Part shown: positions 1,142 to 41,205 of the stretch, one piece after another
Numbering within the stretch: the first letter of the stretch is position 1
Layout: every line of letters starts with the position of its first letter
Virus record (IMG/VR): IMGVR_UViG_2700988920_000001
Span: 1 to 64,000 of that record
From: a virus
Lineage: Duplodnaviria; Caudoviricetes
DNA length: 64,000 bases
Direction: 5' to 3' (one strand)
Notes under the pieces: model-generated
The model's database searches: none
Seen by the model: the letters and a program-made list of their open reading frames with translations, nothing else
What the model was told of the DNA's origin: nothing
Program-made: the position numbers and the translations under genes

Positions 1142-1156
1142 TTGGTCTCAGACCAA
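1142..1156. promoter_or_regulatory. palindrome TTGGTCTNAGACCAA copy 1
   Basis: TTGGTCTCAGACCAA, intergenic, adjoining the RBS of 1167. Confidence 0.9.
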
Positions 1157-1166
1157 GGAGAAAACC

Positions 1167-2207
1167 ATGCGAAACGTTAATGAATCACAAGTCCGCGCTT
1201 ACCTTCTTACTCACGGCGTCATTGAAGGCCTGAAGCTAGAAGGTATCGAAATTGCGGAAATCCGCCGCTACTACAATGAAGTGGACAACTTTGTATCTAT
1301 CTTGATGGAGTACGGCACTATGCTGTCTAACTTTATCGACAAGGCTCAAGCTGAATCGGGCAAAGAGGTTGCAGGCGTTAACATCACGCTTTGTGATAGC
1401 GTCGCTCCTGCTTGGTTGGTTGGTCGCCTATTAGAGTCGGCGGAGCTGAACGCACCTTCAAAAGCGCAGTGGCACTATTTTTCTGAGAACCTGGCTAACG
1501 CTTTCTATTCTGACAAGTTGAATGCGTTCAGTAATATGGACGTTGATAAGCAGATGCGTCCTGGTCTTGAGTTTGATTGTCCTAAGGTCGAATATAGTGA
1601 GGAAGCTATTCGTTACCATTTGGATAAGTTTGGAAGTAGTTTACCAATTGGCGAAGTTCTATACTATCTGGAAAGGCTTCCAAAATCAGCCACTCACATC
1701 AATCTTCACGACCTGTCTTTTGCAGTCTATTGGCTAAAACGCGAGAACGGATCGTGGGCGCTTTGGGCTAAAGCTGGGAAAACTTTTCACGAAGAATTCG
1801 TTTGGATTAAGCCTGACTTTGTTGATGGCTGTTTTATTGACAAGCTCGTACCGCTTCGTGACCTACAAGTCCGTAAAATCCTAGGCAGCAACCAGGAAGA
1901 GCGCGAGATGATGTTTTTGCCAGAAGAAGGTCAATCTCTAACTTTTACTGAACAGAGACTAGACCCAGCTATCGAACATGAAACCTACGTTGCTCCACAT
2001 TTGTCCGAGCAGTCAGTAGAAATCAAAACAGATCGAGAGCTCAGCAAGCCTCAAATCACCAACGTTCACGAGCTGACCACTATTCGAATTGATGGCGCGG
2101 TGATCACCGTTGACTCGCTTAAAAAGACCGTCAACATCGTTAGCGAATATTGCGACCTAATCGTTAACGATCAGTTTACTGTGTCAGGTAGCGTATCAAA
2201 CTTGTAG
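1167..2207 (+). CDS. hypothetical protein
   Basis: 346-aa ORF with AGGAG RBS. Confidence 0.75.
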   Translation: MRNVNESQVRAYLLTHGVIEGLKLEGIEIAEIRRYYNEVDNFVSILMEYGTMLSNFIDKAQAESGKEVAGVNITLCDSVAPAWLVGRLLESAELNAPSKAQWHYFSENLANAFYSDKLNAFSNMDVDKQMRPGLEFDCPKVEYSEEAIRYHLDKFGSSLPIGEVLYYLERLPKSATHINLHDLSFAVYWLKRENGSWALWAKAGKTFHEEFVWIKPDFVDGCFIDKLVPLRDLQVRKILGSNQEEREMMFLPEEGQSLTFTEQRLDPAIEHETYVAPHLSEQSVEIKTDRELSKPQITNVHELTTIRIDGAVITVDSLKKTVNIVSEYCDLIVNDQFTVSGSVSNL

Positions 2208-2265
2208 TAGGCATAATTAAATAATATAATGATTCCATCAGGTGAGAGATTGCTTGATGGGATTT

Positions 2266-2280
2266 TTGGTCTGAGACCAA
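2266..2280. promoter_or_regulatory. palindrome copy 2
   Basis: TTGGTCTGAGACCAA directly after hairpin 2232-2263. Confidence 0.9.
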
Positions 2281-2311
2281 ACCACAATAACAATCCAGTA
2301 AGGACTTAATC

Positions 2312-2641
2312 ATGCAAGACGTTAATAAGATTGTCGCCGTATTGCGCGACCCTAGCCAGGCCAAGTATTACCACGGCGATTTAATGGAAGACGCGGCTGA
2401 CGCGTTGGAAGATTTGAACGAGAAAGTAGAAGAGCTTTCTGTCAAACCTGAGTCGTTGTCAGATTTCGCTGACTACGTGACAGACGCTTCTTCAGCCATT
2501 AAAGAGCATGCTTCTAAAGAAGAGAGTATGCCAAAGCTTGATCTAACGGTTAGCGGCATCCTGAAGCAGCTCAGAACTTCAGTTAAAGAGATAACTGAAG
2601 TGATCGAGTTATTGGAAAGAAATAGATCGGGGTATTTCTAA
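2312..2641 (+). CDS. hypothetical coiled-coil protein
   Basis: TAAGGA RBS; acidic helical sequence. Confidence 0.7.
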   Translation: MQDVNKIVAVLRDPSQAKYYHGDLMEDAADALEDLNEKVEELSVKPESLSDFADYVTDASSAIKEHASKEESMPKLDLTVSGILKQLRTSVKEITEVIELLERNRSGYF

Positions 2642-3042
2642 TGGCTAAACGTATCCCATTCGACTACTCGACTCTAAGAGAGCGCATCAGTAACGCTCAA
2701 ACCCTGAACGACCTTATCTGTCGAGTACCGTACGCGTCTATTCGTGATCGTTACTGCAAGCAGGACATCACCAAGGCTAAGACTCTACACGACCTAGTCA
2801 GAGACCCTAAGAAAGTCCAACAGTCCGTGTTTAAGCTCGAAGAAAAGATCCAGTTTCTATTGTGCCGTGACTGGTGGACGCTCCCTGAACTGGCTTCAGA
2901 AGTTGGCGTGCTTAAACGTCGAATCGAGTTAGCGGTAGGACGAATTAACTCTTCAGGTTATATCGTCAAACGACGCAGCCGAGTAACCCAGAACGTTGCA
3001 ATTACCGAATATCATATTATTAGCGAGAATTCCCATGATTAA
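2641..3042 (+). CDS. putative winged-helix DNA-binding protein
   Basis: C-terminal WTLPELASEVGVLKRRIELAVGRINSSGYIV resembles HTH plus wing. Confidence 0.5.
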   Translation: MAKRIPFDYSTLRERISNAQTLNDLICRVPYASIRDRYCKQDITKAKTLHDLVRDPKKVQQSVFKLEEKIQFLLCRDWWTLPELASEVGVLKRRIELAVGRINSSGYIVKRRSRVTQNVAITEYHIISENSHD

Positions 3043-3496
3043 GTCACTATTAACTTTTGCCTTATTAGCGATGTCTTTCTGTTCTGTGGCTGGCCCATGG
3101 AATGTTGCTGGAAACTTTGCCAAAACTCTAGACACCACCGGATACAACAGCGAAGCGCTTTTGTTTATCAACAAGAAAGGCGACGTCTCTATTGGCTTCA
3201 CCTTCTACGACCCTGACTGTGACGGTTACGAAGCGAAACTCAAACGTCTTCCTGTGCACTTATTCAACGGTGAGCCGATTCACTTCAAATCTCAGTGCAT
3301 CGCAGAAGACAAGATCGCTTACATTCCTACTTACGCTAACGAAGGTTGGAGTATTATGAGACAGTTTAGACAAGGCGAAGAGATGGTGTTCTCTGCCCTT
3401 GCTAAACGCTACGTTTACAAATACAACGCTGTAGGCTTTGGTGAAGCCTATGACGACATCTTTGAAAAATCCCTCAAGTATAAGGAAGATATCTGA
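3035..3496 (+). CDS. exported protein with signal peptide
   Basis: MIKSLLTFALLAMSFCSVA|G signal peptide; Cys pair in mature part. Confidence 0.65.
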   Translation: MIKSLLTFALLAMSFCSVAGPWNVAGNFAKTLDTTGYNSEALLFINKKGDVSIGFTFYDPDCDGYEAKLKRLPVHLFNGEPIHFKSQCIAEDKIAYIPTYANEGWSIMRQFRQGEEMVFSALAKRYVYKYNAVGFGEAYDDIFEKSLKYKEDI

Positions 3497-3681
3497 TGCT
3501 TTGCTACAAATTGAAGTCAACCGGAGAACGTCTGAAGCTTATTCGCAAGCGCAAGCAGGTCAGCATGTTCGAGTGCATTGACCGCCCTATGGAACTGTGC
3601 TGCAGCGGCGTTATGGCACACCCTCGCATCGTGGTGAGCGATGTTCGTTATACCGATGTTGTGGAGGAATGTAAGCAATGA
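3496..3681 (+). CDS. small hypothetical protein
   Basis: translationally coupled TGATG overlap. Confidence 0.6.
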   Translation: MLCYKLKSTGERLKLIRKRKQVSMFECIDRPMELCCSGVMAHPRIVVSDVRYTDVVEECKQ

Positions 3682-3845: not shown

Positions 3846-3926
3846 TCTCGCGTCACGTTTGCGTCTTCTATCAAGGAGGCGCAAAATGCACTCACCGATT
3901 GGACAACTAATCGGTAAGTGCATTTC

Positions 3927-3941
3927 TTGGTCTGAGACCAA
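3927..3941. promoter_or_regulatory. palindrome copy 3
   Basis: TTGGTCTGAGACCAA after hairpins 3858-3885 and 3886-3923. Confidence 0.9.
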
Positions 3942-3963
3942 AACAACCAGTAAGGACAAAACA

Positions 3964-4503
3964 ATGGCAACGAAATACTACAAAACTAACAAACCTGAAA
4001 TCCTGGCTCAGGTGCAGCGCATCAACAACGAGCGTGACGCGCTTAAAGAGGCTGCAGATAAAGTGGCTGAACAGTTCGACGCTAAGGCAATGACTAGAAC
4101 CAGCATGCATGGTGTGAGCTTCGGCGGTTTGGTCCTTAATAACTACGACAACGTAGATCTTTTTAAAGGTCGCACTTCACCTGATCGAGAAGATAAACAT
4201 CTGTGGACTAAGCCAGATAAAAACAACATTAGTTGGCCGCGATCTTCTATCGCTGGCAAAGAGAACAAAGCAGCACTTAAAGAGCTGACTGAGATCTACA
4301 ATGCCGCAGTAGCTTCAATCCCTAAAGTGGAGTTTGAACCGTTCTTTGAAGTGCTTGGCACTGACTGGGGCAACCTTGCTTTTTCAGGGCTCGACTGGTT
4401 CGAACAGGACGGCTCCATCTACTTCGTATCTGGCTTAGATTTCAGTGAAGTAGCTACTGAAATTTTAGGCTCTGAATACGAAACGGCAGAACGAGCTGAA
4501 TAA
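3964..4503 (+). CDS. hypothetical protein
   Basis: TAAGGA RBS before ATG 3964; possible alternative in-frame start at 3886. Confidence 0.7.
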   Translation: MATKYYKTNKPEILAQVQRINNERDALKEAADKVAEQFDAKAMTRTSMHGVSFGGLVLNNYDNVDLFKGRTSPDREDKHLWTKPDKNNISWPRSSIAGKENKAALKELTEIYNAAVASIPKVEFEPFFEVLGTDWGNLAFSGLDWFEQDGSIYFVSGLDFSEVATEILGSEYETAERAE

Positions 4504-4534
4504 TTACTTAACCCAAAACAAGGAAAATAAAACC

Positions 4535-5968
4535 ATGAATTCAACCCACGCTTTCGAGCTTATCCAAAAACTTGCTTCTACTTCTTCTAAAAAAGACAAA
4601 GAGGCTCTACTTAAAGAATTTTGGGACCAAGCTGAGAACACCACGTTCCGCTACGCCCTTCTAAAAGCGCTTGACCCGTTCATCACCTACGGCATGAGCA
4701 AGATGCCTAAAGTGAGCCCAGGCACTGAAGAGTTCAACGAAGACACCTACGCCATGCTTGAGCGTCTTAACCAACGCCAGCTCACAGGCAACGCGGCTAA
4801 GCAAGCGCTTGAAATTGAACTTGGCCGCCTTAACTTCGAGTCTGGAGAACTGCTGAAAGGTATTATCACTGGCAAACTTGGTGCTGGCGTGACTGCTGAC
4901 ACGGTTAACAAGGTTTCTCCTGGAGCCATCTTCGTGTTTAAGATGTGTTTGGCTTCTAAGTTCTCTGACTTGTCAGACAAGATCACCGAGAAACAGTGGG
5001 CTGACGGCGTAAAAGGCGAAGTTAAAGCTGACGGCGTTCGCGGTCTGTTTATGCAGATCAAGCAGTTCCACCCAGTAAGCCGTAACGGTCTGCCTCTTAA
5101 CTCTACTTCAGATATTCGCGAAGAAGTTGCACAGTTCCTTGCTGAGTTTGCCTGCTACGTTAAGTCAGAAATCATCATCAGTGAAGACTATGACGAGTGT
5201 CTCAGCGATGCCATGAACCTAGACTGCGAGTTGGTAGAAGCTAACGACGTATTCAACGACACAGTAGGCAGTGTGCGCAGCAAGGACGAGTCCAAAGCCA
5301 AAACTATTAAGGTTAAGGTTATCGACGTAATCAGTCAGGCTGAGCTAGAAGCAGGCAAGTCTTTCTATAACTACAAAATTCGTCGCGAGATCATGGAAAA
5401 GTTCTTCGCTGAACACGGTAGCTCATTCCCTAACATTTCGCTTATCCCTTGCTTCACTTTCCACAGTGAAGAAGAGACTTACGCCAAGTTTGAAGAGTTG
5501 AAGAACGCTGGCGAAGAAGGGCTTATTATTAAGCTAGACAACGGCTTCTGGGAACAAAAACGAAGCAAGGGCTGGTTAAAGATCAAAGACAAGAACTCAG
5601 CCGATCTAGTCATTAAGTCTCTAGAAGAAGGTGACGCTAACGGCAAGTATAAAGGGCTCATGGGCGCAGCAGTCTGTGACTACAGAAACTCTAAAGGCGA
5701 GACTGTCGAAGTTAAAATAGGCGGTGGTTGGTCTCTACAACAGCGCGCTGAGCTGTGGTCTGCATTCACTGGAAACCCTGTTACTTACAGCACTACAGAC
5801 AACGGTGTGACTACCGAGCACATTACAGACCCTGAAGCGTGCGAAAACCCTGTAGGTTGGCTGATCGAAGTCTCTTACCACCAGGAGACTAAGGACGGTT
5901 CGCTTCGTCACCCTAACTTTGTTCGCCGTCGTACTGATAAAAGCCCTGATGAAGGTCAAGGCGTGTAA
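4535..5968 (+). CDS. ATP-dependent DNA ligase
   Basis: motif I KADGVR, EGLIIK, WLKIK, C-terminal SLRHPNFVRRR. Confidence 0.92.
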   Translation: MNSTHAFELIQKLASTSSKKDKEALLKEFWDQAENTTFRYALLKALDPFITYGMSKMPKVSPGTEEFNEDTYAMLERLNQRQLTGNAAKQALEIELGRLNFESGELLKGIITGKLGAGVTADTVNKVSPGAIFVFKMCLASKFSDLSDKITEKQWADGVKGEVKADGVRGLFMQIKQFHPVSRNGLPLNSTSDIREEVAQFLAEFACYVKSEIIISEDYDECLSDAMNLDCELVEANDVFNDTVGSVRSKDESKAKTIKVKVIDVISQAELEAGKSFYNYKIRREIMEKFFAEHGSSFPNISLIPCFTFHSEEETYAKFEELKNAGEEGLIIKLDNGFWEQKRSKGWLKIKDKNSADLVIKSLEEGDANGKYKGLMGAAVCDYRNSKGETVEVKIGGGWSLQQRAELWSAFTGNPVTYSTTDNGVTTEHITDPEACENPVGWLIEVSYHQETKDGSLRHPNFVRRRTDKSPDEGQGV

Positions 5969-5978
5969 ATAACCAACT

Positions 5979-6153
5979 GGGTCAGCGTCAAAATTGCGCT
6001 GACCCTACGTTACTGTAAACTGACAACACTCAGAGTTTGTTTTTGTCTGAGGCTAAGGGGGCTGAGCTGTCGCATTGACTACATTACGGCTCAGTCTGCC
6101 CGGTGGCTATTGTAGGGGGAACAAAGCGGCCGGAGCTTGGTCTCAGACCAAAA
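5979..6153 (+). ncRNA. candidate structured leader RNA/ncRNA
   Basis: four consecutive predicted stems in a ~220-nt intergenic gap; see findings. Confidence 0.35.
6137..6151. promoter_or_regulatory. palindrome copy 4
   Basis: TTGGTCTCAGACCAA upstream of AphA-like gene. Confidence 0.9.
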
Positions 6154-6187
6154 GCAAATTTACCAACAAACCCAATAAGGACTCACT

Positions 6188-6730
6188 ATGAATACTATCA
6201 GCCCAACTTCTGCGCTATCTCTTCACATCATCGTTGCTGTTAAATCTGCTGGCGCCAAAGGCATCACTGGTTACGACATTCACAAGTCGCTTTCTGACTT
6301 CTGGTCACACCAGCAAGTTTACCGTGACTGTAGCCGACTGGCTAAATCTGGTTTGTTATTCCCGACCGTCAAGAACAACGACGGCAAGCCTGACTCTAAG
6401 GTCTATCTATTCTCAGAGAACGCCTTCTCTGACCTTAACAACTTCTTCGTTACCGTTATGATGCCTTTCTTCAAAGAAAAGGCGCATCTGATTACCGAAG
6501 ACTATCTTTTGGCGTATATTGAGTTTCGCAAGGCTGAAGTTATCAGCAAAGTAGTTCAGGAAATGTCTGATAAAGCGCTTCTTGAAGCACTAATCAAAGA
6601 AGAGGCTAAATGGGTTAAACTTCACTCTGAAGCCAAACAAAACGAAGCTTTGTACGCACACAAGTCTAGTGAGGCGTTTGCAAAGATGTCTATGGTTCAC
6701 TACCTAACTGGGACTGAAAATGAAAAATAA
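6188..6730 (+). CDS. AphA-like (PadR family) winged-helix transcription regulator
   Basis: TGYDI, FW-SHQQVYR and GKPDxKVY motifs match Vibrio AphA N-terminal domain as I recall it; 180 aa. Confidence 0.82.
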   Translation: MNTISPTSALSLHIIVAVKSAGAKGITGYDIHKSLSDFWSHQQVYRDCSRLAKSGLLFPTVKNNDGKPDSKVYLFSENAFSDLNNFFVTVMMPFFKEKAHLITEDYLLAYIEFRKAEVISKVVQEMSDKALLEALIKEEAKWVKLHSEAKQNEALYAHKSSEAFAKMSMVHYLTGTENEK

Positions 6731-8169: not shown

Positions 8170-9336
8170 ATGTTTCTAAAACAATTCATCGCATACCGCT
8201 TCTCTCGTGAACTAGAGCTAAATCTAACCCAACTTGAACAGCAACTTAAAGAGTTCATGTTTGTCCCTTGTGGCTCTCAAGACAAACAAAAGTTTGGCTG
8301 GGTAGAACCTACTGGCGCACTAGGCGGTGACGCTTTTGTTCACTCCGCTGACGGCAACATCCTTCTTACTGCTAAGAAGCAGATCAAGTTGATGCCTAGC
8401 GACACTATCAACCAGAAACTTAACGAAAAAGTTAAGAAGATCGAAGAAGTGGAAGGCCGTCCACTTAAGAAAAAAGAGAAAGACAATATCAAAGATGAAA
8501 TCATCCAAGATATGTTGCCTCAAGCGTTTACTCGCGACTCTTACGCTAACGTACTGATCTTAACTTCGCTAAACATGATCTTGGTTGACGTTTCAAGCCA
8601 CACAAAAGCAGAAGAAGTCCTCTCTCTTCTACGCAAAACAATGGGCTCGCTTCCGGTTGTTCCTGCGATTGGCGCTAGCGCATTCGAAACGTTGGTCACT
8701 GGCTGGATTAAAGAAGGCGCTTCCCCTGCTCGATTCAGTATGCTTGACGAAGTTGTACTTAAATCAGTCACTTCTGATGGTGGTACCGCTAAGCTTGCAC
8801 ACCAAGACCTAGCATCCGAAGAAGTGAAACAACACCTTGAAGCGGGCAAAGTTGCGACTAAGTGTGCATTTGACTGGCAAGGTCGTATGAAGTACTTGAT
8901 GTCTGACGCGTTTGTCGTGTCTAAGATCAAGTGGGCGGACGAGCTTAAAGACCAAAACGACGACATCCCTCGCGAAGAGCAACTAGCTCGATTCGACGCT
9001 GACTTCGCTCTGGCTTGTGGTGAGCTTCGTGTGTTCTTGGTTGAGATGTTCGACTCTTTCGGCGGCTTCCCTAAAGAAGCAGAACAGAAAGACGGTAAAG
9101 CTGACTTCGAAGAGATGTGTACTCACATCGAACTTCTAGAAGAAGCTCGTGATTACGTTGTTAAGTCTAATCGCGCTACGGTTACAGGTCTTCAACGTCA
9201 GTTCAAGATCGGCTACAACCAGGCTTACCGCATCATGGAAGCGCTTGAGAAATGCTGGATTGTTTCTGAGCCTAAGCAGAATGGTGGTCGTGAGATTTTG
9301 GTTTCAGACCAAAAAGGTGAAAGCAATGAAAATTAA
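8170..9336 (+). CDS. rdgC: RdgC recombination-associated protein with C-terminal FtsK-gamma domain
   Basis: PCGSQDKQKFGWV, PQAFTR, MGSLPVVP, ARFDADF; C-terminal LQRQFKIGYNQAYRIMEALE..IVS...GGREIL. Confidence 0.88.
   Translation: MFLKQFIAYRFSRELELNLTQLEQQLKEFMFVPCGSQDKQKFGWVEPTGALGGDAFVHSADGNILLTAKKQIKLMPSDTINQKLNEKVKKIEEVEGRPLKKKEKDNIKDEIIQDMLPQAFTRDSYANVLILTSLNMILVDVSSHTKAEEVLSLLRKTMGSLPVVPAIGASAFETLVTGWIKEGASPARFSMLDEVVLKSVTSDGGTAKLAHQDLASEEVKQHLEAGKVATKCAFDWQGRMKYLMSDAFVVSKIKWADELKDQNDDIPREEQLARFDADFALACGELRVFLVEMFDSFGGFPKEAEQKDGKADFEEMCTHIELLEEARDYVVKSNRATVTGLQRQFKIGYNQAYRIMEALEKCWIVSEPKQNGGREILVSDQKGESNEN
9298..9312. promoter_or_regulatory. palindrome, one-mismatch copy
   Basis: TTGGTTTCAGACCAA, 13 nt before ATG 9326. 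Confidence 0.65.
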
Positions 9337-14864: not shown

Positions 14865-15024
14865 CTTACTAGTGCTTACTGGCTGCACGATTAATTTGCA
14901 AATAGACACTGATTACGCTTCGCAAAATGCAAGTGACGGAGCTATATCCGAAACCGTACAAGCAGAAGCGACCACAACACCAACCGTAGACGTCACCGCC
15001 GACATACAAGGAGAAGGACTATGA
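14839..15024 (+). CDS. small lipoprotein
   Basis: lipobox LTG-C at residue 16; overlaps the previous gene. Confidence 0.65.
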   Translation: MNVTNLLISLLVLTGCTINLQIDTDYASQNASDGAISETVQAEATTTPTVDVTADIQGEGL

Positions 15025-15242
15025 CCATACTATCGCCAGACGTCGAAATGGTTATCGACGTGATTCGAGAGATCGATCCAAAGTACAATTTGTCTGAAAA
15101 CTTAATAGGTAACTGCATGCGAGACGCCATTGGCAACTACTCTCAGGCAGCAAGAACCTTGTGTGTAGGGCAGAACGACGACTTCTGCCGTGGCGTGCTT
15201 CTAACGCTCCACCTACACCACATTGGTGCACTCAATAAATAA
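15021..15242 (+). CDS. hypothetical protein
   Basis: AGGA RBS, ATGA overlap. Confidence 0.6.
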   Translation: MTILSPDVEMVIDVIREIDPKYNLSENLIGNCMRDAIGNYSQAARTLCVGQNDDFCRGVLLTLHLHHIGALNK

Positions 15243-15302: not shown

Positions 15303-15332
15303 TTGGTCTAAGACCAAGTTTAATGGTATAAA
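15303..15332 (+). promoter_or_regulatory. palindrome copy 5 overlapping -35 of a putative extended -10 promoter
   Basis: TTGGTCTAAGACCAA 15303-15317; TGnTATAAA 15324-15332. Confidence 0.7.
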
Positions 15333-15363: not shown

Positions 15364-15738
15364 ATGGCTACTGAACTTCCGCATCGCTACACGTTAGTTG
15401 TAGCTTTACAAATTGGCTCTCAAGCTGACATGGTTAAAGGCATGGCCGAGTTATCAAAAATTCTGCCTGAACACATCGAAGCTGACGAAAAAGGCTGGAA
15501 AGTTAACAACATCAACCCTGAATTTGTAGACAAAGTGAAGGCTGTCTTCAAAGAAGATAAAGTGAAGCTGACTGAAGACTTCGAGATCAACTTCATGTTC
15601 TATCTTGGCTGGGTTGTTGGTAAACGTATGACTACGCTAGTCTTGAGCCACGAAGAGCCTGAGCACCACTTCAACTCTACGCCTTGGAAGTGGGCTGGAC
15701 ACAAGGTGGCGAAGAATGAAAGTAGCAACGACAGTTAA
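15364..15738 (+). CDS. hypothetical protein
   Basis: GGAG RBS. Confidence 0.7.
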   Translation: MATELPHRYTLVVALQIGSQADMVKGMAELSKILPEHIEADEKGWKVNNINPEFVDKVKAVFKEDKVKLTEDFEINFMFYLGWVVGKRMTTLVLSHEEPEHHFNSTPWKWAGHKVAKNESSNDS

Positions 15739-18633: not shown

Positions 18634-18663
18634 AAGGGCGTCTCATTAGACGCCCTTCTATTT
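18634..18663 (+). terminator. intrinsic terminator
   Basis: AAGGGCGTCT-catt-AGACGCCCTT plus T-rich tail. Confidence 0.65.
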
Positions 18664-18711: not shown

Positions 18712-18726
18712 TTGGTCTGAGACCAA
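18712..18726. promoter_or_regulatory. palindrome copy 6
   Basis: TTGGTCTGAGACCAA, downstream of TGcTAGAAT (18667-18675). Confidence 0.9.
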
Positions 18727-18745: not shown

Positions 18746-19381
18746 ATGGCTACTGCCTCTATGAAACGTTCTGCGAAGGACGACAAAATCAATTTGTACA
18801 CAACACCGGAATGGGCAACTCAAGCGCTTATAGATACTGGCGAATTAGACGGTTGTATGTCTTTCTGGGAGCCTTGTTGCGGCATGGGACACATCTCTAA
18901 CGTCATCATTCACAATATTGAGAACCGTTGGACGCCAGGCAAGACAATCGCCTCTACTGACCTGCACGATCACGGCTATGAGTTTGGTACGCCTGACATT
19001 GACTTCCTGATGTCTAACGACATCGGTGCAGACTGTGTCATCACCAACCCACCGTTTGACCGTGTAGGGACGCACTTCTCTATGCTGAAGCATGCGCTGT
19101 CTATGCCTAACGTGAAGAAGGTGTGTTTCTTTATGCCTATGCAATTTCTTGAAACACCTTACCGTGCTAAGTGGCTGATGGATACTGAATGTCTTGTTCG
19201 CGTATGGTCGTTTGCTGATCGCGTTAAATGTTTGACCAAAGGCGATGAATCTCTGTCAAAGGACAACACAGCTAAACACTTTGCTTGGTTTGTCTTCGAG
19301 AAGAACCACTACGGTGACGCGGCTATTGGTTATCTGTTCAAGCCTGACGAAATGCGCCGAGGTAAGAAAAATGCAAAATAG
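18746..19381 (+). CDS. DNA N6-adenine methyltransferase (phage type)
   Basis: YTTPEW, WEPCCGMG, ITNPPF. Confidence 0.8.
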   Translation: MATASMKRSAKDDKINLYTTPEWATQALIDTGELDGCMSFWEPCCGMGHISNVIIHNIENRWTPGKTIASTDLHDHGYEFGTPDIDFLMSNDIGADCVITNPPFDRVGTHFSMLKHALSMPNVKKVCFFMPMQFLETPYRAKWLMDTECLVRVWSFADRVKCLTKGDESLSKDNTAKHFAWFVFEKNHYGDAAIGYLFKPDEMRRGKKNAK

Positions 19382-19916: not shown

Positions 19917-20399
19917 ATGAAGATACTCGACGCATACCACTTCGATGTCGAGGCCAGGAACGTAAACGACCAAGCTCAAAACCAACACCTTGAGTATATT
20001 TTAGGCTTGGTCGTAGGCTGTAAAGACTTAGGTGCGATAGACGCCAGCACGACAATTTACGTACCGTACGACCTTTGGGTTGTACATGGCGGAAAAGGCT
20101 GCATTACCCCTTACGGCGTACAGCTAGTCCATGGCTTAGATGAGGTGTGTACCAGTTTGGAAGGTAAGCACATCCCAAGACGAAACTTTTTGGTCCCAGA
20201 CCAAGCCTCACCCACCGGACAGATAGTACGAAAGCACTTCTGCTCTTACGCGATAAACCCGTCTGGAATGATGACAAAAATCAATGACAGACCTTATTGT
20301 GGACAACGTGGAAAAGGTGAAGAAGTTACTTATGTTCTTGACGAAGTTACTTGCCCAGAGTGTCTTATGGAGTTAAAACAGGTGAATCAATCTCATTAA
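19917..20399 (+). CDS. hypothetical protein with C-terminal Zn-finger-like motif
   Basis: H..YCG...VTCPEC; contains one-mismatch palindrome TTGGTCCCAGACCAA at 20190-20204. Confidence 0.65.
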   Translation: MKILDAYHFDVEARNVNDQAQNQHLEYILGLVVGCKDLGAIDASTTIYVPYDLWVVHGGKGCITPYGVQLVHGLDEVCTSLEGKHIPRRNFLVPDQASPTGQIVRKHFCSYAINPSGMMTKINDRPYCGQRGKGEEVTYVLDEVTCPECLMELKQVNQSH

Positions 20400-23248: not shown

Positions 23249-23536
23249 ATGAAACTACTTAAAAAAGGCTCGCCAGAGTGGAATATGCGCGTTAAACAAT
23301 CTACGTCGTACAACGAGCGAATCGACTACGAAAAAATCAAAGAAACGCTCGAAAATGCAGAAGCTGAAGACTGCATCCAAATCAATTGTCAGCACCGTCA
23401 CCGCTCTAACCTAGTAGCAGGGTTGACCCGTAAAGGACTTATTCAAAAACAAGACTACAAACTTAGCCTATCTAAAGATGAAGAAGATGAAGAGATCATC
23501 CTTATCGAAAAACTAGAGGTTAAGTCTGCCAAGTAG
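23249..23536 (+). CDS. hypothetical protein
   Basis: GAGG RBS. Confidence 0.7.
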   Translation: MKLLKKGSPEWNMRVKQSTSYNERIDYEKIKETLENAEAEDCIQINCQHRHRSNLVAGLTRKGLIQKQDYKLSLSKDEEDEEIILIEKLEVKSAK

Positions 23537-26524: not shown

Positions 26525-26539
26525 TTGGTCTGAGACCAA
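26525..26539. promoter_or_regulatory. palindrome copy 7
   Basis: TTGGTCTGAGACCAA immediately after the primase stop codon. Confidence 0.9.
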
Positions 26540-26585
26540 AAGTATTTAGCCCCGTATTAGGGGCTTTAACCTGTAAGGATTAAAA

Positions 26586-27317
26586 ATGATAAAGCTAATG
26601 AATGAAGACTGTTTGTCTGCTATGAGAAAGTTAGAAGACTCTAGCGTTGACTTAGTATTGACTTCACCTCCATACAACATGAACCTTAGAATACGTAACG
26701 GGAAATATTGTTCTAGACAGATAGTCAAAGAAATCAGCACCAAGTACAAAGCGTTCGATGACAACCTTCCTATGGATAAATACTTTGAATTTAACAAGTC
26801 AGTCATCAATGAGTGCCTGAGAGTTTCTGACTTAGTGTTCTACAACGTTCAAATACTTACAGGGAATAAGCCTGCTTTGTTCCGTCTTATGGGAGAGTTT
26901 CACGATAAGCTGAAAGAAGTGATTGTTTGGGATAAGATTAACGCTCAGCCAGCCATAGGCGCTAACGTTATGAATTCTCAGTTCGAGCTTATTCTTGTGT
27001 TGCAGGACTCTTATCCTGAAAGCCGAGCGTTTAAAACAGCACAATTCGACAGAGGCACTTTGTCTAATCACTGGCAGATAAAACGTGGCAAAAAAGTGCA
27101 TAAAGAACACGGAGCTGTGTTCCCAGAAGAATTGGCTGACAGAGTGATATCTAACTTCTCAAAAGTCGGTGATGTGATCTTAGACCCATTCATGGGAACA
27201 GGAACTACTGGCGCTTCTGCGGTAAAACTTGACAGAAGTTTTATAGGCATAGAGCTAGACAAAGACTATTACGAGTTTTCTGAGCAAAGGATTCTTGGTC
27301 TGAGACCAAAGGAGTAA
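26586..27317 (+). CDS. DNA N4-C/N6-A methyltransferase (beta class)
   Basis: TSPPY before DPFMGTGTT; FIGIELD. Confidence 0.9.
27295..27309. promoter_or_regulatory. palindrome copy 8
   Basis: TTGGTCTGAGACCAA in last codons of the MTase, next to RBS of 27322. Confidence 0.9.
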
Positions 27318-29050: not shown

Positions 29051-30040
29051 ATGGGTCTAGTAAAATCATCTGCTCCTGAAGAAATGGAAACTGTCGAAAC
29101 TAACGAAGTATCTGAAACTGAAACGGCTGAAGTTTCTGCCGAGCAAGTTAACGAAGTTATTGCTCAAGCGCAGGAAGAAGAAGTGTCAACTGAAACTGAA
29201 GTAGCAACTGAGCCTGAAACAGAAGAACCTGTTGAAGAAGTATCAACTGAGCCTGAAACTGAAACGGCTGAAGAGCCTGTGCAAGAAGAAGTTGAAGAAG
29301 TGTCTGAACCTGAAATTGTAGAAGAGAAGAAAATGGAATCTAAACCTAAACCTAAAGCCGAAGAAAAGAAAGAAGTGAAATCGACTGAAGTTGCTGTAAG
29401 CGAAACTAAGTCTACTGCAGTAGCAAAAGCTGACAACAAGCAGGTTGCGGCTAGCCAAGTTATCCAGCAAGCTGAAGACGATGGCTTCGGTGGTCTTGAA
29501 CTAGGCTTCGGCTCATTCGCGATTATCAAACTAGATAACAGCGGTCAGTTCATGGACTCGGACGATAACGAACTTGGTACGCTAATTCGCGCATCTGTTC
29601 AACAGTCGACAGCGTCTTACCTTTACGTACAAGAAGGCAACGACGACAGCCCAGCAGTTTATTCATACGACGGTGTGAACCTAACAGCAGAAACTGAAGA
29701 CGGTGACAAAACTGTCGAGCAAGTTAAAATGCGTTGGGTAGACGAAGGCTACGATATGGAATGTCGTAAGTACCTAGAAGTTGTTGCGACAATCGCAGAA
29801 GATCATGACGACATCATCGACGGTGAAGTTCCTGAAGGACTGCTAGACTACGAAGGCGAGACAGTGATGCTTCGTCTACCGCCAGCGTCTATTAAGACAT
29901 TCTCTGGCAAAGTAGCAACGCTTAAGATGCAGAACAAGCCGCTACGTGGTGCGGTAATGGACTTCAAAGTAGGCAAACAACGTAAGACAAACAACGGCAA
30001 AGCGAAATACTTCCCATGGAAGATCAGCCTAGTTAAGTAA
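29051..30040 (+). CDS. putative ssDNA-binding protein with long acidic N-terminal region
   Basis: lies between helicase and polymerase; Glu/Thr/Pro repeats followed by a beta-rich domain. Confidence 0.45.
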   Translation: MGLVKSSAPEEMETVETNEVSETETAEVSAEQVNEVIAQAQEEEVSTETEVATEPETEEPVEEVSTEPETETAEEPVQEEVEEVSEPEIVEEKKMESKPKPKAEEKKEVKSTEVAVSETKSTAVAKADNKQVAASQVIQQAEDDGFGGLELGFGSFAIIKLDNSGQFMDSDDNELGTLIRASVQQSTASYLYVQEGNDDSPAVYSYDGVNLTAETEDGDKTVEQVKMRWVDEGYDMECRKYLEVVATIAEDHDDIIDGEVPEGLLDYEGETVMLRLPPASIKTFSGKVATLKMQNKPLRGAVMDFKVGKQRKTNNGKAKYFPWKISLVK

Positions 30041-30053: not shown

Positions 30054-30068
30054 TTGGTCTCAGACCAA
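30054..30068. promoter_or_regulatory. palindrome copy 9
   Basis: TTGGTCTCAGACCAA directly before terminator. Confidence 0.9.
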
Positions 30069-30069
30069 G

Positions 30070-30096
30070 AGGCGGCCAATGTGCCGCCTTTTCTTT
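30070..30096 (+). terminator. intrinsic terminator
   Basis: AGGCGGC-caatgt-GCCGCCT-TTTCTTT. Confidence 0.75.
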
Positions 30097-30121
30097 ACAA
30101 ACTCCTGAAAGGAACTAATAA

Positions 30122-35986: not shown

Positions 35987-37045
35987 ATGCTTAACCTATT
36001 TACCGATCCGCACCTAGGGTTGTCAGCACGTACCAACACGTCAGCCAGCTCAACTAAGCTACTCGATTCGAAGATTAGCCGAATTGCTGTAGGCATTACT
36101 CAGAAGTATCTAAACCTGATTTGTGCAGGCGACTTGTTCCACCGCAGCCACAACCGCGAAGACGTGATCGCTGACGGAATCAAAGTCGCGCAAGGCTGTG
36201 ACATCGTTATCGGCGGCAACCACGACAACACGAGCCGTACGGACGACAAGTCATCACTTGATATCGTGGCTAAGGTTGCTGACTCAGTCCTTATGACTGC
36301 AGTCGGCCAGGTTGAAGTTCACGCAGGTCTGCAGTTTGACTCGGGCGAGATTGTGACAATTGTCCCTCACCACTCAAACCAAGAACTGTTTGACCAAGCG
36401 ATTGAAGAGGCTTGCAAGTCAAAAGGTGACTTAGTCATTCTGCACTGCAACTTCAATAACCCGTTTGTAGACGGCATCGACACAGCGCTTAACCTGACTC
36501 CTGCACAAGCTGAACAACTGCTTAAGTCATACAGCTTCGTCGTCATTGGTCACGAGCATAATACGCGTTGGGAAATGAACAACCGTCTACTAGCTTTGGG
36601 TAACACTCACCCGACAGGCTTCAGCGACATCTCTAACAAATACGTTTGGCACTTTGACAAGACTAAAGAAAATCCTTGGTCTAAGACCAAAATTTGGGAT
36701 AAGTCGACAGGCTTTATGTGTCTGACCGCTTCTGACATCTTCGACCTACCAGAGTCAGAGTTTCTAATCGAAGACGGTGCCACACCACCTAGCTTCGTTG
36801 ACATCGTCGGCGACTTGCCAGCAGAAGACATGCCTGCACTCGCTCACCGTATCGGTCTGATTTGGAAGCACTGGAATCCGTTCATGGTGCGCAACCAGGT
36901 TAACGCGGTAACAGAGAAAACTGAGTCTCTGATGGAAGAAGGTTACAAGATCGAAGACTTCAGCTCTAAGATCATGGACGGCCTGCAAGAGTCGCCTGAG
37001 TTGTTGGTGAAGTTTAAATCTGAACTTGAGAAGGTTGGAGAGTGA
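35987..37045 (+). CDS. SbcD/Mre11-like metallophosphoesterase nuclease
   Basis: DPHLG, GDLFH, GNHD, GHEH. Confidence 0.88.
   Translation: MLNLFTDPHLGLSARTNTSASSTKLLDSKISRIAVGITQKYLNLICAGDLFHRSHNREDVIADGIKVAQGCDIVIGGNHDNTSRTDDKSSLDIVAKVADSVLMTAVGQVEVHAGLQFDSGEIVTIVPHHSNQELFDQAIEEACKSKGDLVILHCNFNNPFVDGIDTALNLTPAQAEQLLKSYSFVVIGHEHNTRWEMNNRLLALGNTHPTGFSDISNKYVWHFDKTKENPWSKTKIWDKSTGFMCLTASDIFDLPESEFLIEDGATPPSFVDIVGDLPAEDMPALAHRIGLIWKHWNPFMVRNQVNAVTEKTESLMEEGYKIEDFSSKIMDGLQESPELLVKFKSELEKVGE
36676..36690. promoter_or_regulatory. palindrome copy 10 (intragenic)
   Basis: TTGGTCTAAGACCAA inside the SbcD-like CDS. Confidence 0.8.
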
Positions 37046-37806
37046 TGAAATATATGGGAAGCAAGGCGAGAATAGCAAAGGACATCTTACCGATAATCCT
37101 TGAGGGAAGAAAGCCGGGTCAATATTACGTTGAACCATTCGGAGGTGGCGCGAACTCGATATGTGAAGTTGACAATCCTAGAATTTATAACGACGTAAAT
37201 GACCTTATTGTTGCATGTCTAAAAGAGGTTTCTAATGGGTGGATTCCTCCTGTTGACATAGATAGAGATTTTTACTCCGAGTGCCGTGACAAGTTTAAAA
37301 CTGGCATTTATTCAGAAGAAGAAGAGCACGTTATAGGCTACGTAGGCATTAACGGATCTTATGGTGGCAGATGGTTCGATGGGGGGTATGCCGGAATAAC
37401 TACAACGAGAGAGGGTAAAATAAGAAACTACCCAGAAGAGGCGTGGAGAAACGTCATGGCGCAAGCCCCCAAGCTTGCTGGTGTAGAATTCCACAGTGGT
37501 TGCTACCTAACTCTGGAAATTCCAGCAAAATCGATAATTTATTGCGATCCACCATACAAGGGAACTAAGGAGTATAAATTTGCGGTAAACTCAGGATTTA
37601 ATTCTGATGAATTTTGGCAGTGGTGTCGAGATATGACTAAAGTAGGCCACTCTGTTTTTGTTAGTGAGTACGAAGCCCCAGAAGATTTTGTTTGCGTGTG
37701 GGAGAAAGGGTTAAGTAGCAGTCTTAGAGCTAACGGCGTGATAAAGGGAGACAAGAAGTCATTAGAGAGACTGTTTATTTACCAGCCTAAAGGGGTAGAA
37801 GAGTGA
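37042..37806 (+). CDS. DNA adenine methyltransferase (D12/Dam-like class)
   Basis: KYMGSK, EPFGGG, YCDPPY. Confidence 0.88.
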   Translation: MMKYMGSKARIAKDILPIILEGRKPGQYYVEPFGGGANSICEVDNPRIYNDVNDLIVACLKEVSNGWIPPVDIDRDFYSECRDKFKTGIYSEEEEHVIGYVGINGSYGGRWFDGGYAGITTTREGKIRNYPEEAWRNVMAQAPKLAGVEFHSGCYLTLEIPAKSIIYCDPPYKGTKEYKFAVNSGFNSDEFWQWCRDMTKVGHSVFVSEYEAPEDFVCVWEKGLSSSLRANGVIKGDKKSLERLFIYQPKGVEE

Positions 37807-38076: not shown

Positions 38077-38241
38077 ATGGAAAAGCCAAAAATAACCGCT
38101 AGTGAGGCCAAGAGAAACAGAATACTCGCAGAGACAAAGCGACTTACTGGACTAGGCCTCACTGCAGATCAAATAGCGCGTGAGTTAGGGGTTAAACGAA
38201 ATCTCATCTTGCGTCTTAAAGACTTAACCAATAAGGACTGA
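38077..38241 (+). CDS. small HTH DNA-binding protein (not in ORF track)
   Basis: AGGT RBS; GLTADQIARELGVKRNLI is a classic HTH. Confidence 0.65.
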   Translation: MEKPKITASEAKRNRILAETKRLTGLGLTADQIARELGVKRNLILRLKDLTNKD

Positions 38242-38243
38242 TC

Positions 38244-38702
38244 ATGAAATACCTAGCAAACGGCGTATACAAAGTTAAAGTTACTGACGAAGACGGCGAC
38301 GTAACTGAAATGTTGTCTGAGCTTTCAGACGGCTGTTGGTATGTTTTCGGTAATGACGTAGGCATAGACGAGGAAAACGTGCAAGTCATTTGCCGTATCC
38401 ACTGGGAAACACCAGAAGACAGTTTCTGTATCACCCCTGAACACCCTCGCGCGCAATTCATTGTTGCAGAGATAGACGGCAAAGAAGACCTGCCATACGC
38501 TAAAAACCTGTCTCATATTAATCTAGCTACTCATGAGATATCAGTTTGGTGTGAGAACGGACACCTGACCTACGAAGACAAGGACGGCAACAAAGAAGAA
38601 CACTTAGGCGTAGAACACGTCACGTTTTCCCCTAAACAGTTCAAGGCGTATGATCGTGATACTGGAATCATCTACGCGGAGTGGAATCACTATGAAGCCT
38701 GA
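38244..38702 (+). CDS. hypothetical protein
   Basis: TAAGGA RBS. Confidence 0.7.
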   Translation: MKYLANGVYKVKVTDEDGDVTEMLSELSDGCWYVFGNDVGIDEENVQVICRIHWETPEDSFCITPEHPRAQFIVAEIDGKEDLPYAKNLSHINLATHEISVWCENGHLTYEDKDGNKEEHLGVEHVTFSPKQFKAYDRDTGIIYAEWNHYEA

Positions 38703-38826
38703 AACTTATCTAACCATCGCAGCGGTAGCGACAATATCCGCAATCTTATTCTTTGTAGCCAAAGAGTACGCTGACTGTTCAGGTCAGCTTGTTCGCTCAG
38801 CACTTTGGTTCACTTGCATCTTGTGA
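38692..38826 (+). CDS. small membrane protein
   Basis: MKPETYLTIAAVATISAILFFVAKEYADCSGQLVRSALWFTCIL. Confidence 0.5.
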   Translation: MKPETYLTIAAVATISAILFFVAKEYADCSGQLVRSALWFTCIL

Positions 38827-38832
38827 GGACTT

Positions 38833-39048
38833 ATGAAAGTTAAACTAATGGCCGCGTGTAATCACGCGGCAGTTATCTATCTGCTACTTCCTTTTATGAT
38901 TAGCTGTGCGTCTGCGTTGTTATGTGTGTTTGTGTCAGAAAAGCTACCATACATAGATATGATCGAAGCTATCCTGGTTGTGGCAGTTATCCGTTTCTCT
39001 AAATTAGAGTTAGAGATTAGAAAATTATTGGAAACCAACGAGGACTAA
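38833..39048 (+). CDS. small membrane protein
   Basis: GAGGA RBS; two hydrophobic segments. Confidence 0.55.
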   Translation: MKVKLMAACNHAAVIYLLLPFMISCASALLCVFVSEKLPYIDMIEAILVVAVIRFSKLELEIRKLLETNED

Positions 39049-39050
39049 CC

Positions 39051-41180
39051 ATGATAACCGCAATCCGCACTAACAACTTCAAGAAGCTAGAGAACTTCTC
39101 AGCCTCTTTCAAAGATGGCACCAACCTAGTGTTTGGCGAAAACGGCGAAGGCAAATCAACCTGCTTCGACGCTATTCGCTTTGCGCTGTTTGGCTCAAAA
39201 GGCGTTGCAGGCACAGTAGACAGTCTGACCACCTGGAACAAAGACAAAATGTGGGTAGAGCTGGACATCAACGGCCACACTATCCGTCGCACCTCTTCAA
39301 ACTGTAAGATCACCAAAGACGACGAGGTTGTCGCTTCTGGTAACGCACCGTCGATCAAGTACGTTGAAGACATGCTGTCTTGTTCAGTAAAAGACTTTGA
39401 CTTGCTGTATATGTCGAAGCAGAACGAGACGGCAGGGCTAATCACCTTCGGCGCTACTGAGCTTAACCGTAAAGTTGAAGAGTATGCAGGCGTAGCCGTG
39501 ATCGACAAGATCATTAAAGCGCTTGGCAGCGAAATCAACGGTTGTCAGATTGCTCTTCAAAGTTTTGAGTTTGAGCCAGTGGACGAACTGAAAGAGAAAG
39601 AAGCCAAGCTCAGCGCTGAGATTGCGTCGCTTCGTCCTATCTACGCCCAATTGACAGAGAAGATGAAGACGCTCAGTGAAGAAGCTAACGCCCTGGCGCA
39701 GAAGCTGAAAGATGACCGCAACTTCAATCGAGAGCAAGACGCTATCGCTGCACAGGCTTCAGATCACAACAGCAAGGTAGAAAAACTACAGGCTCAGATC
39801 GAAACGCTTAAGTCTTACTTAGACAAAGCTAACGATAAGCTGCTAGAAGCCAAGGAAGTCGACGCTGATGAACTTGCTTCAGTAAAAGCAGATTTGGACA
39901 AGGTGAAAGCGCTCAACCACGAGCTTTCTCGCTTACCAGTAGCGTCAGATTTAGCGAAAGAGCTAGAAGCAACTAAAGACTACCTTGAGCAACTTAAAGT
40001 CTATGAGGCTGGCGTTCCTGCGTTATTATCGGCAGTAGAAAAAGCTCAAGCAGTGTATGACGAAGCTCGTGACGCGAATGCTAAAGCGCTGAGTGATTAC
40101 AAGAAAGCGTGCAAAGAAGCTGAAGACGGTGTGTGCTATGGATGTAATCGTCCGTTAGAAGGTCACGATCCTGAAACGGCTAAGGTTCACGCCGAAGAAA
40201 AAGCTAAAGCGCTGAACAGCACTAAGTCAGAGATGACTACGGCAAAATCTGAACTTGATGACGCCACGGCCAAACTCAACGCGCACTACAAGACTAACCC
40301 TGGCAACGGTTGGGAAGAGAAAGTAGCACAGCTAGAAGCTAAGATCGAAACGACTAAGCTGAATCGAGAGTCGCTAGAGAAGCGTCTAAGCGGCCTGGGT
40401 CTGGAAGAAACGCTTGAGAGTAAGTTAACTCAGATGCGATCTGACCAGAAAGAGTACTCTTTAGCAATCGGTGCGGTGAACTCGGCGCAGGAAGACCTAG
40501 ACTCAGCCAATGTTCGCATGGACAAGCTGAGAGCGATGAACGTAGAGCAACCACAACCTAAGCGCGATACGGCAGAAGACGAGAATAAGCTGACTAAGCT
40601 CAACGCCGATCTTAACGACGCTATCACTAAGCAAGGTGAAGCGAAGACAGAAGGCGTGAAGGCTAAAGAGCGTTTAACGTCTGTTCAGAATCAGTTGTCT
40701 GGCGCTGAAGCCAACAACAAGAAAATGGCCGAACTAGAGAAACAACTAGATTTGGCTAAGCAATTACGCAAGTACCTGAACGAAGAGCGTGTCAAGTTTA
40801 TGGAAGGTGTGTGGCGCACTATCTTAGGTACAGCATCACACTTTATCAACAAGTCGACTGACGGTTGGATCACCTCAGTTGGACGTAACGATAAAGGCGA
40901 TTTCACATTTACGGAGAATAACTATGAAGCGGTGGCGAAAGAAAGCGCTAGCGGCGCACAGAAAGCGTTTATTGGTACAGCGATTAAAGTCGGACTAGCT
41001 CAAGCTAAGATGGGCTCATCGGCCATGATCATGCTGGACGAACCTACAGCGGATATGCGTGATGACCGCGCTTCTCAGTTGGCGGCAGGCTTAATGATGT
41101 TGCCAGGTCAGAAGATTATGATCACTCACCGTGATTCTGAGCGCATGATCGCGCAGAATATCATTCACGTAGGCGAGTAA
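39051..41180 (+). CDS. SbcC/Rad50-like ATPase
   Basis: GENGEGKST, coiled coil with CYGC Zn hook, SGAQ, LDEPT, ITH. Confidence 0.92.
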   Translation: MITAIRTNNFKKLENFSASFKDGTNLVFGENGEGKSTCFDAIRFALFGSKGVAGTVDSLTTWNKDKMWVELDINGHTIRRTSSNCKITKDDEVVASGNAPSIKYVEDMLSCSVKDFDLLYMSKQNETAGLITFGATELNRKVEEYAGVAVIDKIIKALGSEINGCQIALQSFEFEPVDELKEKEAKLSAEIASLRPIYAQLTEKMKTLSEEANALAQKLKDDRNFNREQDAIAAQASDHNSKVEKLQAQIETLKSYLDKANDKLLEAKEVDADELASVKADLDKVKALNHELSRLPVASDLAKELEATKDYLEQLKVYEAGVPALLSAVEKAQAVYDEARDANAKALSDYKKACKEAEDGVCYGCNRPLEGHDPETAKVHAEEKAKALNSTKSEMTTAKSELDDATAKLNAHYKTNPGNGWEEKVAQLEAKIETTKLNRESLEKRLSGLGLEETLESKLTQMRSDQKEYSLAIGAVNSAQEDLDSANVRMDKLRAMNVEQPQPKRDTAEDENKLTKLNADLNDAITKQGEAKTEGVKAKERLTSVQNQLSGAEANNKKMAELEKQLDLAKQLRKYLNEERVKFMEGVWRTILGTASHFINKSTDGWITSVGRNDKGDFTFTENNYEAVAKESASGAQKAFIGTAIKVGLAQAKMGSSAMIMLDEPTADMRDDRASQLAAGLMMLPGQKIMITHRDSERMIAQNIIHVGE

Positions 41181-41190
41181 ATTAATGGGT

Positions 41191-41205
41191 TTGGTCTGAG
41201 ACCAA
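41191..41205. promoter_or_regulatory. palindrome copy 11
   Basis: TTGGTCTGAGACCAA, symmetry extends to GGTTTGGTCT-G-AGACCAAACC. Confidence 0.9.

Follow-up and report, generated by a model that had tools for sequence, protein, structure and literature searches.

Dispersed exact palindromes at gene borders are already known from a few phage groups, in which their function has not been established. In the mycobacteriophages of Cluster O (the Corndog group) a 17-bp repeat, TGTTCGGNNNCCGAACA, has been described, for which the authors suggest a dimeric binder, leaving the transcriptional role unclear and the function not established (PMC4351075). In T4-type phages, the stem-loop motifs named PeSLs lie at the borders of small early genes and drive the insertion, deletion and replacement of genes (PMC4122927). 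The element treated here is a 15-bp palindrome, TTGGTCTNAGACCAA, dispersed through a 64,000-nt stretch of viral DNA (Duplodnaviria; Caudoviricetes), referred to below as the window, which represents bases 1-64000 of a single contig of 77,837 bp (IMG/VR record IMGVR_UViG_2700988920_000001), the genome of a ~78 kb Vibrio siphovirus. Comparison with related genomes establishes, at the level of sequence, that this motif is itself subject to strong purifying selection, as an exact dyad, throughout a clade of Vibrio siphoviruses of ~78-84 kb, and also that its copies evidently serve as short homologies at which related phages gain, lose or exchange gene cassettes. As to its role, the best reading, which we consider plausible if somewhat short of probable, is that the motif is a sequence-specific double-stranded DNA (dsDNA) site at which a symmetric, dimeric protein binds, probably a product of the phage lineage itself; a dimeric protein had also been among the proposals of a preliminary description of the window, made from its letters alone.

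Stoperators and the operators of the P1 C1 repressor are systems in which the site of one repressor occurs in many dispersed copies, some of them far from promoters, and stoperators are thought to block elongating RNA polymerase. REP and BIME elements consist of many small palindromes in transcribed spacers after stop codons; they are longer and imperfect, and they are tied to RAYT transposases.

The nearest database records are Vibrio phages of 82-85 kb. Among these, phiVP505 shows 89% identity across 92% of a 12-kb query, and phages from V. crassostreae and from oyster-farm seawater carry primases 68-69% identical to that of the window; the hosts named in the records of motif-bearing phages are V. 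parahaemolyticus and V. crassostreae. Three whole relatives, phiVP505_23LXQ (here phiVP505), 51E28.4 and K450, were compared with the source genome, the DNA identity between the source genome, 51E28.4 and K450 being only ~65-78% in blastn high-scoring segment pairs (HSPs). Intermediate relatives were sought in IMG/VR and in metagenomes, and none was found there, only helicases at 25-27% identity. Perfect copies of the motif number 12 in the source genome, 11 in phiVP505, 32 in 51E28.4 and 33 in K450 (88 in total), and with up to two mismatches allowed the counts become 16, 16, 39 and 39, respectively. A blind count of all palindromes with arms of 5-7 bp and spacers of 0-7 bp placed this motif far ahead in all four genomes.

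Once aligned, the 105 copies that have at most one mismatch in the four genomes give the full consensus tTTGGTCT-S-AGACCAAa, in which a T at -1 occurs in 71/105 copies and an A at +1 in 83/105, and no positional information was found elsewhere within 60 nt on either side. Neighbouring genes allow ten copies to be matched across all four genomes, and at these orthologous sites the 14 fixed positions are 98% identical in distant pairs, as opposed to 41-44% identity in the 30-nt flanks. Both intragenic copies are kept in 4/4 genomes, in genes whose products are only 39-45% (19917-20399) or 74-76% (the SbcD-like protein) identical in the distant pair. Because the motif is so much better conserved than its flanks, at the two intragenic sites as well, it is the sequence, and not mere folding, that is strongly selected. 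The preliminary description had taken the site for dyad-symmetric and had named, as one part of what would tell against its proposals, sites not conserved or not similarly placed in related phages; the dyad proves to be real and selected, and the relatives have conserved sites at orthologous places.

The plus-strand arm of the genome is given over to replication and repair and encodes a family-A DNA polymerase with a 5'-3' exonuclease domain, a large primase, an SNF2-type helicase and a Dda-like helicase, together with an ATP-dependent ligase, RdgC-like and SbcC/SbcD-like proteins, three DNA methyltransferases, a MazG-like protein and an endolysin; to judge by an annotated relative, the genes for tail and head are in the minus-strand arm. 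A pattern scan of the window recovered the perfect motif at 11/11 of the positions first reported and, in 100 dinucleotide-preserving shuffles, 0 times; the one-mismatch copies at 9298 (TTGGTTTCAGACCAA) and 20190 (TTGGTCCCAGACCAA) were recovered as well. With up to two mismatches there are 15 matches in the window compared with 0.30 expected, including two poor two-mismatch look-alikes in the minus-strand arm, at 49479 and 54701. A 12th perfect copy lies beyond the window, at genome position 77239, in the plus-strand early region.

Nine of the 13 window copies are wholly intergenic, as compared with 6.0% intergenic bases in 1-42754 (binomial P = 6e-9, on our own map of open reading frames, ORFs), two lie in the final codons of a gene beside the next ribosome-binding site (9298 and 27295), and two lie deep within genes (20190 and 36676). 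The usual placement is between a stop codon and the following ribosome-binding site, and 11 window copies end 10-53 nt upstream of a start codon. Coordinates and placement thus agree, on an independent ORF map, with what had been reported at first. The accompanying claim that the network is confined to the early/replication arm stands in the window, where no copy with 0 or 1 mismatch occurs at 42-64 kb; relatives, however, hold one or two copies in the structural arm, so that confinement is a tendency and not a rule. The copies, to which no strand is assigned, and the cassette that two of them enclose are the following.

1142-1156, perfect copy, centre C: intergenic, 4 nt past the stop of ORF 676-1137 and 10 nt before ATG 1167
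2266-2280, perfect copy, centre G: intergenic, 31 nt before ATG 2312; orthologous copy in 3/3 relatives
3927-3941, perfect copy, centre G: 22 nt before ATG 3964
6137-6151, perfect copy, centre C: 36 nt before the AphA/PadR-like gene 6188-6730
9298-9312, one-mismatch copy (C6 to T): in the last codons of the RdgC-like gene, encoding LVSDQ
15303-15317, perfect copy, centre A: overlaps a promoter-like site; upstream of gene 15364-15738 and 60 nt downstream of gene 15021-15242
18712-18726, perfect copy, centre G: in the leader of DNA methyltransferase gene 18746-19381
20190-20204, one-mismatch copy (T7 to C): deep in gene 19917-20399, in the same orthologous codons in all 4 genomes
26525-26539, perfect copy, centre G: 1 nt past the primase stop; left edge of the methylase cassette
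26541-27294, plus strand, methylase cassette (N6_N4 DNA methylase gene 26586-27317) with a motif copy at each end
27295-27309, perfect copy, centre G: in the final methylase codons; right cassette edge, 12 nt before the SNF2 helicase ATG 27322
30054-30068, perfect copy, centre C: 13 nt past the stop of gene 29051-30040, followed by a hairpin with U-run (30069-30097) and the polA-like gene 30122
36676-36690, perfect copy, centre A: within the SbcD-like gene 35987-37045, encoding WSKTK; distant relatives differ at position 9 only
41191-41205, perfect copy, centre G: 10 nt past the SbcC-like stop and 21 nt before ATG 41227

Recognition of dsDNA by a symmetric dimer is favoured by the dyad at positions 7 and 9, by the C or G centre and by the copy that overlaps a promoter. 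T7 and A9, which flank the single centre base and would be unable to pair in a hairpin, are kept in 88/105 copies, and of the 17 one-mismatch copies 8 are changed at position 7 and 6 at position 9, a roughly symmetric distribution. On the sense strand, the central base of the perfect copies is C or G in 78/88 (48 C and 30 G, with 6 A and 4 T), which fits a C:G pair read from either side and is hard to square with an RNA loop. The centres of the half-sites are ~10 bp apart, that is, one helical turn, as for dimers of helix-turn-helix (HTH) proteins, and the two conserved intragenic copies would be tolerable for a DNA site.

At copy 15303, TTGGTC would provide the -35 hexamer, followed after 18 nt by TATAAA at 15327-15332 (a predicted promoter, read by eye), and each of the 4 genomes has one copy placed over a promoter-like site in this way, with TTGGTC 16-18 nt before a conserved TATAAA(T). 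Overlap with a promoter is the classical location of an operator. More generally, a sigma-70-like site lies within 90 nt upstream of 16/96 plus-arm copies, as against 5.6 +/- 2.3 at random positions, and most of these 16 sites have a perfect TATAAT, with the predicted transcription start ~25-50 nt before the motif. Copy 2266 is preceded by a promoter-like site (TTGTAG-17-TATAAT) and by a 15-bp hairpin at 2231-2264, and copy 18712 stands downstream of a terminator hairpin (18634-18657) and of a promoter-like site (TAGACG-17-TAGAAT). Were the motif indeed a dimer-binding site, the bound protein would modulate transcription of the early/replication arm; at 15303 it would occlude the conserved overlapping promoter, and elsewhere it would form a roadblock just downstream of promoters or between cistrons, the outcome being an arm-wide and probably temporal control.

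Simpler signals do not account for the motif. An intrinsic terminator is ruled out, as the 105 copies are T-rich before and A-rich after the stem and lack a U-run; separate, proper terminator hairpins follow some copies, as at 30069-30097 in the window, and the latter layout is the same in all relatives. A promoter element at fixed spacing, whether MotA-box-like or a general -35, is likewise ruled out, the 60 nt downstream carrying no positional information in the same 105 copies. With a C or G centre the motif contains GGTCTC, and the methyltransferase 18746-19381 weakly matches the Alw26I/Eco31I/Esp3I methylase family (E 0.027, which does not reach the cut-off); a link with restriction or methylation is at most a curiosity, GGTCTC outside the motif not being clearly avoided (20-29 copies vs roughly 25-40 expected). 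Within the window, neither Rfam families nor tRNAs were found.

Several observations weigh against the motif being a binding site for a dimer. As many as 80/96 copies have no promoter-like site nearby, and no -10 element stands at a fixed distance from the motif among the 105 aligned copies, so that classical operator action is not general, and the roadblock role is one that we purely infer. Copy number spreads threefold between lineages (12 vs 33), and many copies must therefore be dispensable. The comparison covers 4 genomes, three sub-lineages plus the window's own, in which orthologous sites share ancestry and are thus non-independent. Moreover, the binder itself was not found: the only conserved recognisable regulator, the AphA/PadR-like protein discussed below, is an unlikely candidate, and the other conserved small phage proteins match no DNA-binding family or fold. 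The binder may also be encoded by the host. Finally, 9/105 copies have a further arm, 8-12 nt long, that complements the 3' half and centre of the motif; eight of these arms lie upstream, and the ninth, being in the minus-strand arm, is upstream relative to transcription too (9/9). Extra arms of at least 10 nt number five vs ~0.04 expected by chance (our own estimate), and two of the arms exactly complement variant positions of the partner motif. A symmetric DNA-binding protein offers no explanation for such a strand bias, and the one-sidedness of the arms suggests a single-stranded stage, in a transcript or in replication by template switching.

A single-stranded form is the premise of the main rival explanation, a doubtful one to our mind, in which the motif acts as an RNA or single-stranded DNA hairpin with a stem of 6-7 bp and a UNA loop, bound by a sequence-specific RNA-binding protein or endoribonuclease, for the gene-by-gene processing or stabilising of polycistronic early/middle transcripts in the manner of T7 RNase III sites or REP hairpins. 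The placement suits such a role: the typical copy stands in an A/C-rich leader, with the preceding stop codon 1-30 nt away and the next start 8-56 nt further on, and in no fewer than 11 cases a consensus -10 box ~25-50 nt upstream would put the copy within a 5' leader. The plain motif folds in its sequence context, and in the nine copies with an extra arm, always 5' and in two cases with compensating changes, the extended hairpins (up to 13 bp as folded) reach -19 to -20 kcal/mol; among variants at stem positions, 5 are G:U-compatible on the sense strand vs 2 that are not, the orthologous copies among these being non-independent. However, the basic stem is weak, at -6.0 kcal/mol, and it never covaries among the 105 copies, from which it follows that pairing alone is not selected. 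T7 and A9 keep their symmetry although they could not pair around one base, a centre that is C or G alike would not be expected if a protein read the loop, and cleavage at the two copies conserved deep in ORFs would destroy the message. The extended arms themselves could be by-products of template switching at a palindrome. Public RNA libraries of the phage (X1-X4) consist of assembled contigs with a flat 3-5x depth, in which transcript ends are not readable and uncovered parts carry no meaning.

If a dimer does bind the motif, the proteins suggested at first are poor candidates. The products of 2641-3042 and 38077-38241 have homologues only in phiVP505 and none in 51E28.4 and K450, with their 32-33 copies (tblastn, E <= 1e-5), and absence from the two motif-richest relatives rules them out. 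The AphA/PadR-like protein encoded at 6188-6730 (plus strand), which matches PDB 1yg2 (E = 7e-9), is present in all four genomes and is an unlikely binder on sequence grounds: its orthologues in 51E28.4 and K450 share only 29-34% identity with it, and the segment SHQQVYR, its putative recognition helix to judge by PadR/AphA structures, is invariant in 6/6 aligned AphA/PadR-like proteins, including those of two Vibrio phages with 0 motif copies. The 220-nt spacer in front of this gene (5968-6188) is conserved in outline in all four genomes, with a terminator-like hairpin, a G-rich block and, ~95 nt ahead of the perfect copy 6137, a second and degenerate motif.

Other proteins were set aside. 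The first gene of the window, 155-652, bears the PHROGs label "DNA binding protein", and its product is a look-alike of pyrimidine-dimer DNA glycosylases in the ESM Atlas (feature score 0.96, TM 0.87) with no Pfam match at E <= 0.01; in view of that resemblance it is ruled out as the binder. Gene 15364-15738, annotated in phiVP505 as having an "HTH domain", finds no support in protein families, PDB or Atlas, and for 23249-23536 (P0003) the single-sequence model was poor (pLDDT 54) and was not used. A weak lead is provided by the following gene.

15021-15242, plus strand, gene for a 73-aa product (P0002), ending 60 nt upstream of the promoter-overlapping copy 15303

Its product is the best-conserved small protein of no assigned function in the arm, with 68-72% identity in distant relatives, and is predicted to form four helices (pLDDT 81); no significant fold match was obtained in PDB or BFVD and no Pfam match at E <= 10. 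The model gives the impression of a possible Fis-like HTH.

That no phage binder was found speaks for another explanation, in which a conserved Vibrio host transcription factor, possibly of the GntR/HutC or FadR type, binds the motif; a genus-wide factor would explain why the identical motif occurs in phages of both V. parahaemolyticus and V. crassostreae. Operators of the GntR family (the dre sites of DasR/NagR and the FadR boxes) have TGGTCT/AGACCA-type half-sites in dyad, a likeness already pointed out in the preliminary description, with a spacing different by 1-2 bp, which would rotate the half-sites relative to each other. Pfam scans of ~60 phage proteins revealed no member of the GntR family. 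A regulon site, moreover, would not need 12-33 copies. In a set of 401 bacterial genomes of one class, which may hold no Vibrio, the motif is lacking in 399 and occurs as a single copy in 2, the reversed control pattern being present in 8/401. On balance we regard a host factor as very unlikely.

Outside the clade the motif appears to be absent from the phages scanned. Pseudomonas phage Lana, which is distantly related and shares the architecture, has 0 copies at up to 2 mismatches, and so have the Vibrio phages D65 (50,000 of 52,228 bp scanned) and 431E45.1, which are of other types. Among the matches listed in a pattern scan of IMG/VR (at least 80 stretches), all are single-copy contigs. A search of bacterial contigs with the methylase gave 13 loci, none of them in Vibrio, and the AphA-like protein found one match among 400 bacterial genomes, in a genome of 2.6 Mb. 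No phage paper in the literature searched contains the motif string in any of several spellings. D65 and 431E45.1 each carry TGTACA-N6-TGTACA twice, with no other recurring palindrome found in either, and this sequence might be the operator of their AphA/PadR-like regulator.

The role of the motif in gene exchange, which the preliminary description had raised as a possible cassette-recombination site, is borne out most directly by the methylase gene 26586-27317, which lies between copies 26525 and 27295; phiVP505, 51E28.4 and K450 are without the gene and have one copy each, and the flanks of the cassette align exactly on the motif in these relatives. An RNase_T-family exonuclease gene that begins right after copy 9298 is missing from phiVP505, which for its part has an extra gene inserted just downstream of the counterpart of copy 41191 and whose homology with the window starts 8 nt upstream of copy 1142. 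A contig of run X1 parts from the window at precisely base 3926, directly in front of copy 3927. Of the HSP ends between the source genome and phiVP505, 4/64 lie no more than 25 nt from a motif centre (random mean 0.58, maximum of 2000 trials 4), and 7/46 do so between 51E28.4 and K450 (random mean 1.08, maximum 6); this enrichment, above chance as it is, is supportive and not decisive, because gene borders attract such ends anyway and the comparison was made without motif-free borders. Exchange at the motif would follow from the recurrence of the same 15-17 bp at gene borders.

The same observations could be taken to mean that the motif is primarily a recombination or mobility element without a regulatory protein of its own, either a PeSL-like exchange point, kept because co-infecting relatives can trade cassettes there, or a selfish REP-like palindrome propagated by a hairpin-acting enzyme. 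Beyond the cassette with its two copies against one, the genes gained next to copies 9298 and 41191 and the breaks of homology at motif edges, including the strain variant that diverges at 3926, the range of copy number from 11 to 33 between lineages would be in keeping with such an element, and the Cluster O mycobacteriophages behave likewise (PMC4351075). Against this stand the ten orthologous sites, two of them intragenic, which remain 98% identical amid diverged surroundings. Usefulness in exchange alone would neither fix 14/14 bases nor require a palindrome; no recombinase or transposase is common to all four genomes, the one annotated "transposase" being found in 51E28.4 only, and the enrichment of HSP ends is partly positional. 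We therefore consider a purely recombinational role unlikely, the dimer-bound site remaining our preferred reading, with cassette exchange as a consequence of its repetition at gene borders.

Some further features of these genomes touch on the motif or its neighbours. At several sites in some relatives, the preceding gene takes its stop codon from the TGA or TAA at the middle of the motif, its ORF ending 9 nt into the motif (51E28.4 at 18859 and 21598, K450 at 29627, in our orientation). The 12th perfect copy has a partial direct copy (TTGGTCTGAGC) immediately beside it (genome 77228-77253), and the junction string of that region recurs in the X1 contig at another locus (3926). Runs X1-X4 are all labelled as RNA libraries, X1-X3 more closely as soil metatranscriptomes; the phage in them is almost identical to that of the window, apart from a divergent allele of gene 3964-4503 (~40 differences) and the replacement of the 88 bases at 4431-4520 by 479 others. 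ORF 676-1137, directly before copy 1142, has a 22-residue peptide tandemly duplicated at its C-terminal end (AKSIS.GTVTADHLFERTTKLN x2; window 1000-1137). As for the methyltransferases, 18746-19381 (phrog_799) is present in all four genomes, 26586-27317 (N6_N4) is the cassette gene, and 37042-37806 (D12 class) has a counterpart in phiVP505 only.

In what it may contribute, this is an unusually clean case, combining a 15-mer unchanged across genomes ~65-78% identical, orthologous sites, a promoter copy, insertions bounded by copies and tractable Vibrio hosts, and it makes directly testable the question whether such palindromes regulate transcription, mark RNA for processing or serve mainly the modular exchange of genes. 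A more ambitious version of our preferred reading, that a lytic phage has a dedicated system in which a small dimeric protein at up to 33 borders would provide an arm-wide off/on switch as well as standard cassette junctions, is quite unlikely; if true, it would amount to a stoperator-like network outside lysogeny joined to integron-like modularity without an integrase. The likeness to stoperators, raised in the preliminary description, holds in that the sites are dispersed and goes no further than a loose analogy, because the motif is symmetric and neither an integrase nor an immunity repressor was recognised among the phage proteins scanned. Stoperators and P1 C1 sites are asymmetric, oriented sites of temperate phages with a known repressor, whereas the motif here is a perfect dyad without orientation to transcription, its centre on the sense strand being C in 48 copies vs G in 30. 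From REP elements it differs in that no RAYT-type enzyme was seen in this phage.

PeSLs share with the motif their location at the joints of gene indels and replacements between close relatives; they are, however, composites of promoter and terminator (PMC4122927), unlike this short exact palindrome with promoter-like sites at 16/96 copies and no U-run. With no fixed flanking signal, and with A's and not T's after the stem, the motif is not a PeSL. The closest counterpart is the Cluster O repeat, in which, as in the motif here, invariant 7-bp inverted arms enclose a short variable centre, copies (more than 30 per genome) occupy mainly the short intergenic spaces of one transcription arm, with some intragenic, orientation has no meaning, and segments are found between two copies where relatives have one; the repeat is also reported to be absent from the host (PMC4351075). 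The centre there consists of 3 free bases, mostly AAA or TTT, whereas here it is one base, mostly C or G, flanked by a conserved T and A, and the Cluster O genomes are described as very similar to one another (PMC4351075), in contrast to the ~65-78% DNA identity seen here. The sequence is unrelated, as are the phage family and the Gram-positive-type host, which speaks against common descent of the two elements. With invariant arms, tens of copies in the intergenic spaces of one arm and indels between copies, the palindrome of these Vibrio siphoviruses is thus an analogue, and not a homologue, of the Cluster O repeat, and as a dispersed element of its clade it gives annotators a marker of gene borders and mosaic joints.

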